A stretch of 29,406 nucleotides of DNA, taken from the UHGV virus genome UHGV-0125383; one strand, given 5' to 3'. Both the position numbers and the translations under genes were made by a program. Source of the DNA: a virus. The notes under the pieces were generated by a model that was not told where the DNA came from, did not search any database, and saw only the letters and a program-made list of their open reading frames with translations. Numbering within the stretch: the stretch's first letter is position 1; each line of letters starts with the position of its first letter. Positions 16,403 to 20,949 of the stretch are shown piece by piece.

Positions 16403-16957
16403 TCATGCGTTAGTTTCTCCACTGATACGACACGCCACGGCGCCCGGAGCTGCACACTCGCGGGCGTCACTCTTTTTCGGCGCACAAAAGACGCGAAAAA
16501 GCAGCGTTAAGTGTTCCTGCCATTTAGCCATCACCTGATAGCTGTTCTCTTCGATCTGCGCTCGTTCCTTCTCATCAATCACACCGTCGGCAGTTGCCTT
16601 GCGAACGTACTGTGAATGCTTGCCAATCCACTCGACTGACTCCATCAGGCGCTGGTTGATATCGCCGTTCTCAATCTCTTCAACATCAGCCAAAGGCACA
16701 AAAACACCGTTGGAGTGACGTGCGATAGCATTCGCAATATGGTTTGAGCCACCAGCTCTCTGTAACACCATTGCCCAGCCAAGCGGGAAGATCTGATCAC
16801 CATCAGCCCGAAGGCGGTTAAACAGTGCATTTTCAGTAACGCCCAACCACTCAGCAGCCTCGGCATAACCGCCAGGCAATTCGGTGATCGTCTTTTTGAT
16901 TGCGCCCACCAGCCAGGATGGTTGCTTATCAACTTTCCATTCCGGTTCATTTCCCAC
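16403..16957 (-). CDS. Phage early regulatory protein with HTH (CII-like / YdaT-like position)
   Basis: 184-aa ORF immediately downstream of the cro-like gene; contains an HTH-like segment (GYAEAAEWLGVTENALFNRLRADG). Family assignment is tentative. Confidence 0.45.
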   Translation of the reverse strand: MGNEPEWKVDKQPSWLVGAIKKTITELPGGYAEAAEWLGVTENALFNRLRADGDQIFPLGWAMVLQRAGGSNHIANAIARHSNGVFVPLADVEEIENGDINQRLMESVEWIGKHSQYVRKATADGVIDEKERAQIEENSYQVMAKWQEHLTLLFRVFCAPKKSDARECAAPGAVACRISGETNA

Positions 16958-17000: not shown

Positions 17001-17201
17001 TTACTGTTTTGGATAAATGTCAGGACGAAGATCGGATTTGCTGATAATTCCAGAAGTGGTCTCTTCCAGCTTTTTAGCTAAGGAAAAACCGGCTTTTTTG
17101 TAACCATTAAAAACTAAGCGCAGGTAGCCAGGTGTTGACCCAACGCTTCCGGCTAAATCACCTTGTTGCTCTTTGGTTAAAGAGTCCCAATACTCTTTCA
17201 T
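17001..17201 (-). CDS. Cro-like HTH regulator (YdaS-like)
   Basis: Track ORF 17001..17273 is over-extended; the ATG at 17199-17201 is preceded by a perfect AGGAGG SD and gives a 66-aa product MKEYWDSLTKEQQGDLAGSVGSTPGYLRLVFNGYKKAGFSLAKKLEETTSGIISKSDLRPDIYPKQ. Divergent from the repressor gene across the operator region. Confidence 0.8.
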   Translation of the reverse strand: MKEYWDSLTKEQQGDLAGSVGSTPGYLRLVFNGYKKAGFSLAKKLEETTSGIISKSDLRPDIYPKQ

Positions 17202-17205
17202 GATA

Positions 17206-17283
17206 TGTACCTCCTGTGTACATATTACACGAAAGAAATGAACCATCAAGGTACTTGTACCACTGAGGTACACATTGTTTAAT
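17206..17283. promoter_or_regulatory. Immunity-region operators and divergent promoters (PR-like leftward, PRM-like rightward)
   Basis: Two 17-bp palindromes TGTACCTCCTGTGTACA (17206-17222) and TGTACCACTGAGGTACA (17256-17272), plus a weaker TGAACCATCAAGGTACT (17239-17255). Minus-strand TTGATG (17244-17249) and TAATAT (17222-17227) fit a PR-like promoter; plus-strand TTGTAC (17255-17260) and TTTAAT (17278-17283) fit a PRM-like promoter placing the cI ATG at the transcript start (leaderless). Confidence 0.65.
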
Positions 17284-17289
17284 TTACTG

Positions 17290-17964
17290 ATGAAAACTAT
17301 CCAGGAAATCAGGCGGTTAAACGCCAGAAAATTGAGAGATGGTGTTGGCGGTAATACTTACTTTGCTAACATGATCGATCGCGAGCCAACCCAGACCAGC
17401 AGGTTCATGGGAGAAGGTGCCACCAAAGGTATTGGTGACACTATGGCCAGGCACATCGAAAAATGTTTCGATCTTCCTCAGGGGTGGTTAGATACAGAAC
17501 ATCAAACGACTAATGTTGCAAAAGAACCTGATGTTTCCGACACTAATAGAAACATTACTATGGTTCCCGTTATATCCTGGGTGCAGGCAGGAGCATGGAC
17601 CGATTCTGGTTATGCTGAGGTAGATTTGAATAGTGTTGAAACCTATCCTTGTCCCGTGCCATGCGGGCCTATGACATATATCCTGCGTGTCATTGGAGAC
17701 TCAATGATCGACGAATATCGTCCTGGCGATATGATTTTTGTCGATCCTGAGGTCGCTGCAACGCATGGTGATGATGTCATAGCCCTAATGCATGATTCTG
17801 GTGAGACAACATTTAAAAGACTTATAGAAGACAGTGGTGCAAAATTTCTCAAAGCGTTGAATCCTAACTGGCCTGAGCCATACGTCAAGATTAATGGTAA
17901 TTGCTCAATAATTGGTACTGTAGTTTTCTCAGGAAAGCCCAGAAGATACAGACATAAACCTTAA
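17290..17964 (+). CDS. CI-type prophage repressor (HTH plus S24 LexA-like autopeptidase domain)
   Basis: Track ORF 17275..17964 begins at a TTG; the first ATG is 17290 (MKTIQEIRRLNARKL...). C-terminal domain has the S24 Ser motif (GDSM) and a downstream Lys (TFKRL). Confidence 0.9.
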   Translation: MKTIQEIRRLNARKLRDGVGGNTYFANMIDREPTQTSRFMGEGATKGIGDTMARHIEKCFDLPQGWLDTEHQTTNVAKEPDVSDTNRNITMVPVISWVQAGAWTDSGYAEVDLNSVETYPCPVPCGPMTYILRVIGDSMIDEYRPGDMIFVDPEVAATHGDDVIALMHDSGETTFKRLIEDSGAKFLKALNPNWPEPYVKINGNCSIIGTVVFSGKPRRYRHKP

Positions 17965-17975
17965 TTTTTCACAGT

Positions 17976-17999
17976 AAACCTGCTTCGGCAGGTTTTTTT
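17976..17999 (+). terminator. Rho-independent terminator downstream of the repressor gene
   Basis: AAACCTGC-TTCG-GCAGGTTT followed by a T-run: an 8-bp stem with TTCG tetraloop. Confidence 0.8.
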
Positions 18000-18003
18000 A
18001 TGC

Positions 18004-18032
18004 TTGACAATGTACCTTGACGGTACATAATG
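18004..18032 (+). promoter_or_regulatory. PL-like early promoter overlapped by a third operator copy
   Basis: TTGACA (18004-18009), about 16-17 bp spacer, CATAAT/ATAATG (18026-18032). Operator TGTACCTTGACGGTACA (18011-18027) occupies the spacer, so the repressor would occlude it. Confidence 0.65.
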
Positions 18033-18137
18033 TACCTACAAGCAACAGCGAACAGGCAGGACGCCCACGAAGTAGCCGCCGGTGGCGTATGAATGACCGG
18101 ATGATTCGCTAAGTAAGTCACGGTTGAGGGTTACACA

Positions 18138-18350
18138 ATGAATGCAGCACAGCGCCGCAAGGCGTATCGCAAACATCCAAAGGCCGGAGAGACTGTAGTT
18201 TTGCGCGGAGTTCCTCGCGTAGTTCTTGGCCCATGTACGTTCAATAGCTTTACAGGAGAAGGACGAAGCAAACCATCAGTGAGCCGAATCAGGGTTCAAA
18301 TGACTGGCGGTTCTACCGCTTCGCCACTGGTGCGGAATTTAAAGTTTTAA
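18138..18350 (+). CDS. Hypothetical early protein (70 aa) with Arg-rich N-terminus; possible N-like antiterminator
   Basis: First ORF downstream of the PL-like promoter; GAGGG SD 8 nt upstream of the ATG; N-terminus MNAAQRRKAYRKH is arginine-rich. No boxA/boxB-like nut site was found, so the function is speculative. Confidence 0.4.
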   Translation: MNAAQRRKAYRKHPKAGETVVLRGVPRVVLGPCTFNSFTGEGRSKPSVSRIRVQMTGGSTASPLVRNLKF

Positions 18351-18817
18351 TACCAAACAGGTGTCTTCGGGAGGGGTAACAGAGTCGCGGCCTGATTAAC
18401 TGCAACTCGTAGTCAAATTCCTACAGCTGGTGGCGATACCCAAGCCAGGAATACCGAAAACCAGTAGGAGTGTTAGGGAACAGGGCCAATCACCCCCTTA
18501 GCACCCCGCCCGAAGATACCTGACACCGCGCCTGATGTGGATAAAAGCAGGCCAAAGCAATAAGAAGTTCATCCCTGTTCTGGCGGCCCGGTGTTTTCCC
18601 GTGTATTTCCGGCAACCGCCAGCCTTTTCAGGGCACAACATGCAAGCGCACTCCTTCACTTACCAGTTATGGGTGACAGGTGTGAAACGGCGGAGTGCGC
18701 TTGCAGTTGTGGTGAATTGCAGCCCTTAGAGGTAACCAGAAGATAAGCATCTGGCGCCACAACCCAATCACGTAGCCAGCGTGGTACCAGGAAGTAAGAA
18801 AGCTGTGTGTAGTCTTG

Positions 18818-18887
18818 GCGGTACCAGGGTCTTCAACCTGACAAAAGGGGGACGAAGATAATGTTCTACCTCGGTACCGCCTTTTTT
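18818..18887 (+). terminator. Terminator-like element inside the early-left structured region
   Basis: GGCGGTACC (18818-18826) pairs perfectly with GGTACCGCC (18873-18881), followed by TTTTTT (18882-18887); the loop is long (46 nt), so function is uncertain. Confidence 0.3.
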
Positions 18888-19022
18888 ACAAAACAGACAA
18901 GGGCATCACCGGGTGACGGGCTCATAACCCAATCCACCCGGGCGGTTGCAGCCGCAGGTGCTCTTGTCTGTTTTGTGGAGAAACTAACTGGCGGTAGCGA
19001 CCGCCAACTCGAGGGTTAAACG

Positions 19023-19394
19023 ATGAGTAATGACCGCATGACCGTAGTGCCCGACTTCCTGGGCGAACTGGATGCCGGCGTGTTCATGAATAAGATCGCC
19101 GCGGCGCTGAATACCACCGCGCTCGGAGTTCTGAACAACGGCAACAAAGGCAAGGTAGTCCTTACCTTTGATTTTGAGCGTATGGGTAACTCCGTCGAAG
19201 AGAAGCGCGTCAAGATCAAGCACAAACTGAACTACAGCACCCCGACACCACGCGGAAAAGCGTCCGAAGAGGACACAACCGAAACCCCTATGTGGGTCAA
19301 CAAAGGCGGGAAGCTCACCATCCTCCAGGAGGATCAGGGGCAACTGTTCGGGATCACCGGCGCGGTGGACGGAAAGCTTAAAGCGGCTCAGTGA
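19023..19394 (+). CDS. Hypothetical phage early protein (123 aa)
   Basis: Track ORF with GAGGG SD upstream; no family recognised. Confidence 0.55.
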   Translation: MSNDRMTVVPDFLGELDAGVFMNKIAAALNTTALGVLNNGNKGKVVLTFDFERMGNSVEEKRVKIKHKLNYSTPTPRGKASEEDTTETPMWVNKGGKLTILQEDQGQLFGITGAVDGKLKAAQ

Positions 19395-19450: not shown

Positions 19451-20278
19451 ATGTCTCAGTTAGACAACGGCACATTTCAGCAGGTAAAAGACCTGGTTCT
19501 TTCTGGCTACCATCTGAATGATATTCAGGATCTGGCATGTCCAACCGCATTGTTACCTCAAGGAACCAACGTAGAAAGCCTCGAGCGTTTTTCTCTGGAG
19601 CGTTTCCGATTCCGCGGCGCAATGACCACGACCAGCATTGACGACTTCGCTCGTTACTCGAAGGGTTACTCCAACGCCGCCGAACCAGCCCGTTGCTTTA
19701 TTGACGCTGACAACATGACCGCCCGCTCGGTATTCAATATCGGCTCCCTGAACAATCCAGGACATGCCGATAACGTTGCCGCTATCACCCTGAAGAAAAC
19801 TGCCCCGTTCCGCGCGCTGCTGCAGATCGATGGTCAACGCCTGAAGCAAAAGCAAATCGCCGAATGGCTGGAAGACTGGAGCGATTATCTGCTGGCGTTC
19901 GATGCAGATGGCAATACGATGCAAATTTCCCAGGCCGCCCAGGCTGTACGCCGTATCACTATCCAATCGGCAACCCAGCAGGATCATGAAACAGGTGACT
20001 TCGCAGGTAAACGCTCACTCATGCAAAGCGTTGAAGCCAGCAGCAAAGAAGTCATGCCGGTGGCGTTCGAGTTCAAGTGTGTGCCGTATGAAGGGCTTGG
20101 CGAGCGCCGCTTTAGTCTGCGTAACAGCCTGCTGACTGGTGATGAGCCGAGCTTTGTTCTGCGTATCGTCCAACTGGAAGCCCAGGAAGAAGCGATCGCC
20201 AACGAGTTTCGCGATCTGCTGATCAGTAAATTCGACGGTGAATCAGTAGAAACCTTCATCGGTAACTTTAAAGCGTAA
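19451..20278 (+). CDS. DUF2303-like phage protein (YfdQ-like)
   Basis: 275-aa ORF with AAGGAA SD; resembles the YfdQ family of enterobacterial prophages (memory). Confidence 0.55.
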   Translation: MSQLDNGTFQQVKDLVLSGYHLNDIQDLACPTALLPQGTNVESLERFSLERFRFRGAMTTTSIDDFARYSKGYSNAAEPARCFIDADNMTARSVFNIGSLNNPGHADNVAAITLKKTAPFRALLQIDGQRLKQKQIAEWLEDWSDYLLAFDADGNTMQISQAAQAVRRITIQSATQQDHETGDFAGKRSLMQSVEASSKEVMPVAFEFKCVPYEGLGERRFSLRNSLLTGDEPSFVLRIVQLEAQEEAIANEFRDLLISKFDGESVETFIGNFKA

Positions 20279-20409: not shown

Positions 20410-20949
20410 ATGAGTTATATCCAGACTCTTTCCGGTAAGAAGTTCGATTATATCAACTCCACCATTGACGATATTGATATCGAAGACATCGCCGGGGCGC
20501 TTTCCAATATCTGCCGCTTCGCGGGGCACCTGTCGGATTTTTACAGCGTGGCACAGCATTCCGTTCTGTGCAGTCAACTCGTGGCGCCAGAGTTCGCCTT
20601 TGAAGCGCTGATGCATGATGCCGCAGAGGCGTACTGCCTGGACATCCCTGCCCCGCTGAAAGCATTGTTGCCAGATTACCGCCTGATCGAGACACGAACT
20701 GACCACCTAATCCGCCTGAAATTCGGCCTGCCGCTCGACGAGACATACCTCGTTAAATATGCCGACCTGACCATGCTCGCGACCGAGCGCCGGGATCTGG
20801 ATATCGACGACGGCTCCATATGGCCGATTCTGGAAGGTATTCCACCCACGGATTTATTCGAAATTCATCCTTTGCGCCCCGGCCAGGCCTTCGGCCTGTT
20901 CATTAACCGGTTCAATGAACTGATGGAGCTGCGCCAATGCGCCGCCTGA
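20410..20949 (+). CDS. HD-domain phosphohydrolase (YfdR-like 5'-deoxynucleotidase)
   Basis: 179-aa ORF with HD motif (ALMHDAAEAY) and upstream His residues; TAAGGAGAA SD. Confidence 0.7.
   Translation: MSYIQTLSGKKFDYINSTIDDIDIEDIAGALSNICRFAGHLSDFYSVAQHSVLCSQLVAPEFAFEALMHDAAEAYCLDIPAPLKALLPDYRLIETRTDHLIRLKFGLPLDETYLVKYADLTMLATERRDLDIDDGSIWPILEGIPPTDLFEIHPLRPGQAFGLFINRFNELMELRQCAA

Follow-up and report, generated by a model that had tools for sequence, protein, structure and literature searches.

Positions 18351-19020 of the window (the whole 29,406-nt stretch of the viral genome UHGV-0125383) constituted a strongly folded, non-coding portion of a prophage early transcript. By analogy with the dicF region of the Qin prophage, we consider it probable that this 670-nt stretch is a non-coding multi-module RNA segment of the PL transcript that is cut into small RNAs, with read-through aided by a leader. 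The prophage appeared to be an N-less lambdoid of the ST64B / SfV / LLS type (no N homologue was found in LLS-type phages), and the segment to be the counterpart of the ydfC-dicB (dicF) region in Qin.

Folding and coding content

The MFE of the + strand of 18351-19020 was -287 kcal/mol, versus -226 ± 5.8 kcal/mol in shuffles (z = -10.6); the - strand gave z = -6.6 versus shuffles, and a neighboring coding stretch of equal length and comparable GC content (19451-20120; 670 nt), used as a control, gave z = +1.05. Compensatory changes were present in the stems, and since many of the pairs were G.U (C.A mismatches if read on the - strand), the structure was assigned to the RNA level and to the + strand. 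The first-pass annotation had described an ORF-poor, strongly structured stretch with dense complementarity, and this was borne out: all of the pairings quoted exist, several being longer than claimed. The pairing placed at 18360 and 18509-18527 joined 18358-18377 with 18503-18522 (20 nt, 90% complementary). That at 18645 and 18692 was real, but the 9 bp given were too few: 14 nt matched perfectly (18641-18654 with 18692-18705). The pairing at 18818 and 18873 comprised 18817-18830 and 18868-18881, followed by T6 at 18882-18887, and the 14-bp perfect inverted repeat at 18888 and 18963 was the core of 28-nt arms (18888-18915 with 18949-18976). GGTACC occurred three times as described, at 18783, 18820 (given as 18821), and 18873. 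Its proposed relation to the operator was abandoned: the copies at 18820 and 18873 pair with each other in the terminator C stem, and this stem is also found in phages with other repressors.

No ORF of 18351-19020 matched a credible protein family. ORF 18535-18729 had no match in Pfam or PHROG, and the sole match of ORF 18861-19019 was phrog_33599, a function-unknown family (no Pfam match). The RNA under the latter ORF had homologues of 98-123 nt, varying in 1-2 nt steps, and the ORF annotated over the module D RNA in mEp460 lies on the opposite strand; therefore, ORF 18861-19019 does not represent a conserved coding frame. A decayed protein-coding gene would account for the short hypothetical proteins that automatic annotation puts here in several phages, and for the match of phrog_33599 to the ORF over D. 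Nevertheless, this explanation is almost certainly incorrect: the annotated ORFs vary in frame and strand among phages, the steps in length are of 1-2 nt, the substitutions in stems are compensatory, and no Pfam match was obtained.

The covariance-model search and the homologue alignment proposed in the first-pass annotation were both run; the latter yielded compensatory pairs. No Rfam family reached its gathering score anywhere in the window, and relaxing the search to E <= 10 over 17950-19100 added nothing beyond a weak DicF-like terminator match and miRNA/snoRNA hits attributed to chance. YrlA (RF02553), GOLLD, ROOL, and STnc100 (RF02076) gave no match in the window at gathering or over 17950-19100 at E <= 10; STnc100-like matches were found elsewhere, in ST64B, P1, Qin, and a Klebsiella phage.

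Modules of the array and their homologues

On sequence comparison, the region was a mosaic of modules, each of which was also found separately in other enterobacterial phages. Three classes were distinguished: framed long-stem hairpins (A, M3, and D), terminator-ended sRNA-like units (B and C), and the three-helix M4. The features are as follows:

18358-18522, + strand: module A, a 19-20-bp closing stem (18358-18377/18503-18522), a four-way junction, and three arms
18523-18629, + strand: module B, sRNA-like, with a terminator hairpin (18580-18586/18616-18622) and a U run (18625-18628)
18633-18717, + strand: module M3, a framed hairpin with the stem 18633-18654/18692-18711
18706-18763, + strand: module M4, three-helix, common to the P1 ban-operon leader, Sashavirus, and FAM21845
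18802-18887, + strand: module C, a single-stranded motif (GCUGUGUGUAGUCUU), a terminator hairpin (18817-18830/18868-18881), and U6
18886-18983, + strand: module D, a three-way junction of P1 (18888-18908/18956-18976), P2 (18909-18915/18935-18941), and P3 (18942-18955)
18988-19006, + strand: a small hairpin (CUGGCGGUAGCGACCGCCA), with equivalents after D in many loci, often with UGCAG-type loops
19011-19015, + strand: a Shine-Dalgarno (GAGGG) serving the yfdP-like gene that starts at 19023

Frames with one stem consensus (CACAAC...GAGAGCA / UGCUCUC...GUUGUG) held swappable cargos in the same slot, canonical T-arm hairpins included. The layout of the window was collinear with that of phage ST64B, and collinear arrays were also found in Flotzy/Eeyore and FAM21845. 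The frame of module A (fold z = -5.7) was shared by ST64B and loci L099 and L111 with different cargo, and by locus L019 with the same cargo. Module B, with a conserved 5' part reading CCGCGCCUGAUGUGG.UAAAAGCAGGCCAAAGCAAUAA..., had 14 distinct homologues; its terminator, found in two covarying versions, is followed by four U only. The terminators of B and C were both missed by a simple scan because their loops exceed its limit.

A discrete transcript, to which the first-pass annotation had looked for confirmation, has been documented for a homologous prophage, ST64B of Salmonella Typhimurium: STnc1310, a discrete 74-nt ncRNA detected by RNA-seq (Owen et al. 2020, PMC7067206). Its TPM ranges from 44 to 2373 and rises together with the downstream genes (sb37/sb36 homologues) under peroxide or NO shock (PMC7067206). 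With its coordinates mapped onto locus L006, STnc1310 stretched from the A-frame stem of ST64B (3' strand) as far as the B-type terminator, and module B was its positional counterpart. Both lie in the same operon, in the same slot after an A-type frame and with the same flanking modules, and both end at a CUGGCGG...CCGCCAG terminator. On the other hand, their similarity was confined to the terminator part (74.5% over 55 nt), and B of the window has an extra conserved 5' hairpin, being ~35 nt longer.

Module M3 (covariance model R1: 21 bits, E = 0.005; fold z = -5.2) was homologous to the frame in Qin that holds the RNase III site yielding the 190-nt DicF, and 18695-18712 matched Qin (locus L131) 2741-2758. 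Other cargos occupied the M3 slot elsewhere, e.g., a double T-arm frame in FAM21845. Because the M4 5' strand (GUUGUGG) and the M3 3' strand have nucleotides in common, M3 and M4 represent alternative pairings. In the M4 alignment, which contained four sequences only, 98.3% of cells were paired and there were 3 compensatory pairs.

The motif GCUGUGUGUAGUCUU of module C was conserved in Flotzy and ST64B. Module C occupies the slot of DicF in Qin and has the terminator stem of DicF. Its assignment to the DicF family was rejected: the score with Rfam DicF (RF00039) was 15.2 bits at 18804-18882 (gathering, 48; genuine DicF, 76.7), and the alignment covered little beyond the terminator stem. In context, C agreed with DicF in lying in an early-left-type operon, in its terminator ending in U6, in the presence of the homologous stem, and in spacing: counted from position 18700, homologous to the cut in Qin and a presumed cleavage site by analogy, the U run ends after 188 nt, versus 190 in Qin.

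In Qin, RNase III (190-nt form) and RNase E release DicF from the operon transcript, and the long M3-homologous stem contains, in its 3' strand, the 5' end of the 190-nt form. The dicBF operon of Qin (E. coli K-12) resembled the window in four respects: a several-hundred-nt non-coding stretch in a repressor-controlled early-left-type operon; an sRNA with an intrinsic terminator (UUGGCGGUA...CCGCC stem); a homologous long stem ~190 nt upstream containing the mapped RNase III site; and a long-stem-closed domain just 5' of the next ORF. It differed from the window in that an STnc100-like domain takes the place of D, modules A, B, and M4 are additions of the window, and C was outside the DicF family by Rfam score (15 versus 48 bits).

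The P1 ban-operon leader (the 'dicF-like region', trnA, trnT) contained an M4 with 82% identity and two D-like modules whose loops read UCAUAU, as well as framed modules of the same stem consensus, one of which had a canonical T-arm as cargo. However, these modules stand among genuine tRNA genes in a different operon, and the annotated antisense CDSs plp and upl cover part of the leader.

A large structured ncRNA had also been suggested; a single functional unit of this sort, similar to GOLLD/ROOL, would be consistent with the very low z over the entire 670 nt and the association with phages and tRNA genes. This is very unlikely: the modules assorted independently (only D in mEp460; B and D in Nissle; M4 and D-like modules in P1), cargos were swapped inside the same frame, the MFE structure broke into separate, independent local domains, and no large RNA was matched in Rfam.

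Module D and the initiator-tRNA anticodon arm

Module D is an uncurated motif absent from Rfam, a three-way junction supported by covariation (fold z = -8.2). In its alignment (A6; 35 sequences; covariance model R1), 97.2% of cells were paired and there were 9 compensatory pairs, versus 38-52% of paired cells in slid controls. It was found in at least 120 IMG/VR viral contigs, and in Enterobacterales only. A degenerate D pattern was also found in Nitrospira, Planctomycetota, Bacteroidales, and others, without the surrounding structure, and these hits were regarded as chance matches. A full-text literature search with the D core sequence found no mention of it. Reports on tRNA mimics and decoys in prophages provide context only, and the Pas sRNA preprint concerns sRNAs of the late region, not the 18351-19020 locus.

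The P2 cap GGGCUCAUAACCC (18918-18930) is the initiator-tRNA anticodon stem-loop: the window reads GGGCTCATAACCC, consisting of three G-C pairs and a CUCAUAA loop identical to tRNAfMet, the sequence of which was present at 100% identity in 5426 of 5426 E. coli genomes. When the flanks were included, 16 of 20 positions were identical. This apical cap and the 5' 55 nt of B were highly conserved, and a conserved GGAG follows the long stem of D.

D itself was not recognized as a tRNA: ARAGORN, with standard and relaxed thresholds, found no tRNA in the window, and Rfam tRNA (RF00005) had no match at E <= 10 over 17950-19100. Only a very permissive mitochondrial mode called Met(cat), among many false positives. 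A short form (type-2) starts 6 nt past real tRNA genes in a late operon and ends in RCCA (CAGGCC + R + CCA in 15 of 15 copies), while type-1 D of the window has a 21-bp stem followed by GGAGAAAC and thus no acceptor-type stem with NCCA. The species 1 and 2 RNAs of T4 (in a tRNA cluster) and the bacterial Y-RNA-like YrlA are tRNA-like stable RNAs. Type-2 D resembles them in its position beside tRNA genes, its acceptor-like stem followed by RCCA, and its mimicry of a tRNA arm; however, D has no D arm and its anticodon-type arm is extended, and in type-1 D a stem of 21-26 bp without CCA replaces the acceptor-like stem.

Whether the framed hairpins are MITE-like palindromic mobile elements inserted into the operon, as the first-pass annotation had offered in part, was also considered. 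Their 16-28 nt terminal inverted repeats surround 40-130 nt of variable cargo, and the frames have a common stem consensus. This origin is exceedingly unlikely in view of the median of one copy per E. coli genome (with copies in only 304 of 5426 genomes) and the location of D in phage operons, in the direction of the flanking genes, in every annotated context examined. Moreover, the stems changed by compensation and G.U pairs, which keep pairing on the + strand only, instead of being preserved as inverted-repeat ends, and neither target-site duplications nor a transposase were seen.

A purely cis-regulatory role, in which the hairpins and terminators attenuate, insulate, or time the early-left genes, perhaps by tuning translation as the RNase III site of the lambda N-leader does, and in which no module is a separate RNA, appears rather unlikely. 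It is in keeping with the invariable location of D directly upstream of the first downstream ORF, between the terminator and the Shine-Dalgarno, with the attenuator-like alternative pairing of M3 and M4 through a common strand, and with the presence of two terminators within one operon. However, the D core also occurs in a late operon, 6 nt past tRNA genes and with an RCCA end; M4 and D-like modules are located among tRNAs in the P1 ban leader; the B position of ST64B is the site of a detected, discrete ncRNA of 74 nt; and the 5' 55 nt of B and the D cap are conserved far beyond the need of a simple attenuator.

No target was found for any module, and in the window, sequences complementary to the D loop or to the CCAAUCCA segment of D were no commoner than chance. 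AUGAG at the start of the next gene was rejected as a partner of the D loop: it follows from the Met-Ser with which yfdP-type proteins begin, and is missing where rdgC follows D.

Leader RNA, predicted processing, and biological meaning

Upstream of the array, the following features were identified:

18004-18031, + strand: a PL-like sigma-70 promoter (TTGACA, a 16-nt spacer, and CATAAT; 11 of 12 consensus matches)
18043-18115, + strand: a structured leader RNA with a closing helix (AGCGAA/UUCGCU), an invariant core, and a covarying hairpin (CCGGU/ACCGG)
18138-18350, + strand: an orphan 70-aa ORF with a Shine-Dalgarno, inserted between the leader and module A, outside the RNA array

The promoter, which sits among ATGTACC/GGTACAT operator palindromes with the cI terminator (17976-17995) upstream, is predicted to drive the transcript containing 18351-19020. 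The PL-like promoter of the first-pass annotation thus held, but the first small ORF placed after it proved to be an insertion absent from ST64B, Flotzy, and L019; the leader directly adjoins module A in ST64B, L019, L099, and L111. The ORF was also considered as a possible N-like protein; it had no Pfam or PHROG family, no tblastn match, and no phage homologue.

There were 33 distinct versions of the leader in the fetched loci, and it also occurred in phages of Yersinia, Pectobacterium, Pantoea, Aeromonas, and Providencia. Its alignment (A8) had 98.5% of cells paired and 5 compensatory pairs (slid controls, 20-45%), while its overall fold was no stabler than shuffles (z = +0.9) and it had no Rfam match. 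The leader is a candidate factor-independent antiterminator. HK022 put is similar in its size (~70 nt), its place as the first element of the PL transcript, ahead of intrinsic terminators, and its occurrence in a phage group without an N gene, but differs in predicted fold. Homology with put was rejected because BLAST revealed no similarity and the leader covariance model R2 had no match at E <= 10 in the HK022 immunity region (putL, putR). The GGUACC copy at 18783 was set aside as an antiterminator because it is not conserved in ST64B or Flotzy. Between the antitermination and processing elements that had been proposed for 18351-19020, processing fits best, given the published RNase III site in the homologous Qin stem; the best candidate for antitermination is this leader, outside the 670-nt stretch.

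In the favored multi-module reading, transcription would begin at the PL-like promoter and the nascent RNA would fold one module after another. By extrapolation from the single homologous stem of Qin, RNase III may cut A, M3, and D within their closing stems (19-26 bp), and 3' ends would be provided by the two intrinsic terminators at about 18629 and 18887. Three products are predicted: a ~110-nt sRNA B similar to STnc1310; a ~190-nt species that extends from the stem of M3 as far as terminator C and is trimmed to a DicF-like sRNA; and D RNA, a tRNA-like three-way junction displaying the mimic of the initiator-tRNA anticodon arm. Through the cut in D, the mRNA of the downstream yfdP-yfdQ-yfdR-like genes would acquire a defined 5' end, and the leader would provide read-through of both internal terminators into these genes. 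RNase III processing hairpins are familiar in phage early transcripts from the lambda N-leader and the early sites of T7, which are also long hairpins in early polycistronic RNA just 5' of a ribosome-binding site. The present hairpins, for which cleavage in this phage is only predicted, differ in forming a family: their stems follow one consensus, and their apical cargos, conserved and in some cases built from tRNA parts, are swappable.

B, C, and D may function in trans. D could conceivably serve as a decoy or competitive inhibitor of tRNAfMet-cleaving nucleases, e.g., VapC/MvpT of Shigella, Salmonella, and E. coli plasmids, or as a binder of the 30S P site, aided by the conserved GGAG after the stem. 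A broader proposal is speculative and has only a modest chance of being correct: in temperate enterobacterial phages, small RNAs 'framed' for RNase III and assembled from pieces of tRNA (the initiator anticodon-arm mimic in D and single or double T-arm hairpins in others) would form a family acting in trans on tRNA-recognizing machinery, and the leader would be a novel type of antiterminator RNA that works without a protein.

Early-left operons of lambdoid phages are commonly taken to be rows of small genes, and the space described here is annotated as hypothetical proteins, even as a PHROG family. The conserved modular RNA array found where annotators place such proteins means that DicF in Qin, the sole well-studied case, has counterparts across a widespread phage group including ST64B, SfV/SfII/SfIV, mEp460, LLS, Stx2c phages, and many prophages. 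The orphan ncRNA STnc1310 gains a structural context, and D and the PL leader bring the number of newly defined, well-covarying uncurated RNA motifs to at least two. The copy of the anticodon arm, with a short form next to tRNA genes that ends in CCA, offers an entry point to the role of phage tRNA-like RNAs, and read-through of early terminators by N-less lambdoid phages becomes testable. If D does act in trans, it would represent RNA-based counter-defence or manipulation of host translation.

Structure of the region and its place in the early-left operon

Strong folding was predicted for the region (18351-19020, + strand): its minimum free energy was -287 kcal/mol vs -226 +/- 5.8 in shuffles (z = -10.6), the opposite strand gave z = -6.6, and a coding control of equal length and similar GC content gave z = +1.05. 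The first-pass annotation had described this segment as structured and ORF-poor, and both properties were confirmed: all of the complementarities that it listed were found, several being longer than claimed, and the ORF at 18535-18729 matched no Pfam or PHROG family. A second ORF (18861-19019), overlapping the RNA module referred to as D, had phrog_33599 ("unknown function") as its sole family match, and its counterpart in mEp460 is annotated on the other strand. phrog_33599 is probably a family built from mis-called ORFs over a conserved non-coding RNA (ncRNA). The underlying RNA ranged from 98 to 123 nt among homologues in steps of 1-2 nt, and this indel pattern, together with the lack of a frame, made it scarcely credible that the region is a decayed protein gene.

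A lambdoid immunity region was present in the window, with the following features.

Features of the immunity region and early-left operon
16403-16957, - strand, CII-like gene
17001-17273, - strand, cro-like gene
17275-17964, + strand, cI (S24/LexA-type)
17976-17995, cI terminator, 3' of cI
18004-18031, strong PL-like promoter (TTGACA, 16-nt spacer, CATAAT; 11/12 consensus matches)
19023-19394, yfdP-like gene, downstream of the region
19451-20278, DUF2303/yfdQ-like gene, downstream of the region
20410-20949, yfdR-like 5'-nucleotidase gene, downstream of the region

This early-left operon belongs to the "LLS functional type" of lambdoid phages, which is N-less and Rec-less and includes LLS, ST64B, and phiNP; the authors who defined the type remarked that an N gene was missing and speculated on a put-like mechanism. 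Operator-like palindromes (ATGTACC-N6-GGTACAT) overlapped the PL-like promoter (18010-18042), and GTAC-containing operators were also found in the PL region of HK022 (L176; L-numbers denote loci fetched for comparison), the two repressors being weakly similar. A 70-aa ORF (18138-18350), which has a good Shine-Dalgarno sequence and an N-terminus rich in arginine (MNAAQRRKAYRK...), matched no Pfam or PHROG family and gave no tblastn match in 50,697 phage records. Since the structured leader RNA (18043-18115) directly adjoins module A in ST64B, L019, L099, and L111, this ORF is an insertion between them here.

A mosaic of RNA modules

By BLAST against phages, E. coli genomes, and the fetched loci, no record contained 80% of the region, while its pieces recurred separately; this recurrence and the predicted fold defined the module borders.

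Modules of the region (+ strand)
18358-18522, module A, 19-20-bp closing stem with three arms inside
18523-18629, module B, conserved 5' part, terminator hairpin, and U run
18633-18717, module M3, long hairpin
18706-18763, module M4, small, three helices, 5' strand overlapping the M3 3' strand
18802-18887, module C, conserved single-stranded motif, terminator hairpin, and U6
18886-18983, module D, three-way junction with a long closing stem
18988-19006, small hairpin directly 5' of the Shine-Dalgarno sequence of the yfdP-like gene

The module order was collinear with the window in phages Flotzy and Eeyore, in ST64B (leader, A-type frame, B-type terminator, frame, STnc100-like piece, C-type terminator, D, sb37), and in the E. 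coli FAM21845 prophage (B, frame, M4, C, D, rdgC). Subsets occurred elsewhere: D in mEp460 and many Stx2c phages, B and D in Nissle 1917, and M4 with D-like modules in P1. This modularity contradicted the proposal of a single large ncRNA, which is very unlikely, and the small palindromic mobile element also suggested is even less probable in view of the copy number, constant orientation, and covariation.

Homologues of the A and M3 apical parts were found, with no recognisable features. M4 shared 82% identity with a segment of P1 that lies 68 nt downstream of trnT, and was also similar to Sashavirus intergenic segments; the pairing of 98.3% and three compensatory pairs in its alignment are suggestive but thin evidence of structural conservation, given four sequences. 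GUUGUG (18706-18711), shared by the M3 3' strand and the M4 5' strand, can pair with CACAAC at the M3 base (18634-18639) or in M4 (18758-18763). These mutually exclusive helices, an arrangement also found in P1 and FAM21845, could form a folding or processing switch.

D was the most widespread piece, with 71 phage records and at least 120 IMG/VR contigs; it was part of the matches in 304 of 5426 E. coli genomes, and was confined to Enterobacterales (~26 species) in a one-genome-per-species collection. A typical enterobacterial type-1 D with its terminator in a contig assigned to Chryseobacterium sp. 18061 (L147, 3360-3480) is probably due to assembly contamination or mis-binning. The fold comprises a long stem (P1), an arm with a conserved cap (P2), and a variable hairpin (P3). 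Compensatory changes among homologues, which the first-pass annotation had proposed as a check, were seen at nine pairs in 35 distinct sequences, with 97.2% of cells paired vs 38-52% with slid partners and a covariation score reached by no shuffle. The frequent U.G and G.U pairs in the stems and the model scores (forward ~110 bits vs reverse ~35 bits) assigned the RNA to the + strand. The covariance-model search of Rfam matched no curated family for D.

The D cap GGGCUCAUAACCC (18918-18930) exactly reproduced positions 29-41 of the E. coli initiator tRNA, whose sequence was checked against all E. coli genomes. The identity covers the three G-C pairs that are characteristic of initiator tRNAs, and 16 of 20 positions matched when the flanks were included. 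Divergent copies (ST64B, P1, Yersinia, and Klebsiella spallanzanii) retained U-CAU and GGG/CCC, while adjacent loop positions varied. D itself was called by no tRNA finder, and the D arm of a tRNA is absent. Two types were distinguished. Type 1 (113 loci including the window; P1 of 21-26 bp) had a terminator U-tract 5' in 98 loci and a conserved GGAG 3'. Type 2 (15 loci; P1 of 6 bp) was located between Q and the lysis genes of Klebsiella and Raoultella lambdoid phages, starting 6 nt past the 3' end of a tRNA-Asn, -Arg, or -Thr gene in 14 loci, and was followed directly by RCCA, a tRNA-like acceptor end, in all 15; a separate Raoultella copy lay 3' of tRNA-Phe. In the late-operon leader of Klebsiella phage ST11-VIM1phi8.1 (L008, 879-1574; Q to the lysis genes), IsrJ (57 bits), STnc100 (85 bits), tRNA-Asn, and type-2 D followed in order, which makes this leader a second kind of ncRNA array in phages. 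In many loci (for example, window 18942-18955, L007 2620-2640, and L158), hairpins whose loops are of the UGCAG type (GCGGUUGCAGCCGC, CGACCUUGCAGGGUCG, GGCGGUGGCAGCCGCC) recurred in P3 and just 5' of the ribosome-binding site of the next gene, and may be a common protein-binding or tertiary-contact motif.

Frames, proposed processing, and a transcript in ST64B

Modules A, M3, and D had a common design, in which a long stem (frame) encloses an apical "cargo" that varies. M3 was also detected by the covariance model derived from D (21 bits, E = 0.005), as were additional frames in P1 and Klebsiella phages, and a scan of all fetched loci yielded 105 distinct frames (consensus CACAAC..GAGAGCA / UGCUCUC..GUUGUG), usually with GUGAAU or GGAGAA next 3'. 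Different cargos occupied the same slot, among them the core of D, a hairpin of the M3 type, a 74-nt form frequent in mEp460-like phages, and a 130-nt form bearing two canonical T-arm hairpins (GGUUCGAUUCC); ST64B carried the A frame of the window with another cargo. The 130-nt module occupied the M3 slot in FAM21845 (L002, 3112-3242; also L014, L020, L087, L124, and L166) and had no Rfam match in a scan of L002. One P1 frame contained a canonical T-arm (GGGUUCGAAUCCC) and an anticodon-like loop. In the ban-operon leader of P1 (L003, NC_005856, 69472-70041), the CDSs plp and upl are annotated opposite framed modules (M4 and two D-like), and these gene calls may be artefacts or overlap functional RNAs.

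The dicF region of the cryptic prophage Qin had the same kind of frame (L131, 2672-2696 and 2735-2759), its 3' strand being homologous to that of M3 (window 18695-18712 matches L131 2741-2758). In published work, the 190-nt and 53-nt forms of DicF are made from the operon transcript, the former by RNase III and the latter by RNase E. With DicF annotated at L131 2883-2935, the 5' end of the 190-nt form falls at ~2746, within this strand; the window equivalent is 18700, 188 nt from the end of terminator C (18887). From this position and spacing, we infer by analogy that the frames serve RNase III as processing sites, in which case M3(3')-M4-C would be the counterpart of the 190-nt precursor. Module C shares the terminator stem UUGGCGGUA...UACCGCC with DicF; its membership of the DicF family was not supported (15.2 bits vs a threshold of 48), the alignment being essentially this stem.

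B had 14 distinct homologues, with an almost invariant 55-nt 5' part and two covarying terminator versions. A base-pairing sRNA is usually built from a hairpin at the 5' end, then a linker rich in A/U, and a terminator. A discrete transcript from a homologous prophage is on record: in RNA-seq of Salmonella D23580, STnc1310 (2099207-2099280; TPM 44 to 2373), downstream of ST64B cI, and the next two genes were induced by peroxide and nitric oxide shock (PMC7067206 and its supplement). With cI as an anchor, STnc1310 mapped to L006 ~2158-2231, with its 5' end at the A-frame stem (3' strand) and its 3' end at the U run of the B-type terminator. This places a discrete small RNA at the B position; its 5' end is where an RNase III cut of frame A would fall.

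The leader and the proposed function

The leader (18043-18115) begins where PL transcription is predicted to start, outside the region. It showed ~97% identity in the closest of the phages examined (ST64B, Flotzy/Eeyore, Nissle, and Phi06_2987), and also occurred in Yersinia, Pectobacterium, Pantoea, Aeromonas, and T5-like Providencia phages. Among 33 distinct versions, 98.5% of cells were paired (slid controls, 20-45%) with five compensatory pairs; one hairpin occurred in seven compensatory versions, and the closing helix was compensated. No Rfam match was found, and a relationship with HK022 put was rejected by BLAST and by covariance model. Because two intrinsic terminators precede the first conserved genes in a phage group without N, the leader is a natural candidate for a protein-independent antiterminator.

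We favour, with moderate confidence, the reading that the region is a part of the PL transcript that is processed into several RNAs. RNase III would cleave the frames, terminators B and C would supply 3' ends, and the products would be B (STnc1310-like), a DicF-like RNA from C, and a tRNA-like D RNA; the cut in D would set the 5' end of the downstream mRNA, and the leader would promote read-through. A purely cis-regulatory region is rather unlikely, being weakened by the occurrence of D and M4 beside tRNAs in unrelated operons and by the ncRNA detected in ST64B.

One case of this kind of region, DicF in Qin, is already known, as is the "dicF-like region" of P1. The LLS paper contained nothing on the array, the design of frames with cargos, D, or the leader motif; Rfam had no family for them, and a full-text literature search for the D core sequence found no match. 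What appears to be undescribed comprises the array as it occurs in phages of the ST64B/SfV/LLS type, the frame-and-cargo design, module D (with its mimic of initiator tRNA and its RCCA variant adjacent to tRNAs), and the leader motif. VapC/MvpT toxins of the same hosts cleave tRNAfMet according to the literature, and a tentative, rather unlikely proposal is that D and the T-arm cargos may be trans-acting mimics aimed at tRNA-recognising enzymes such as these toxins.
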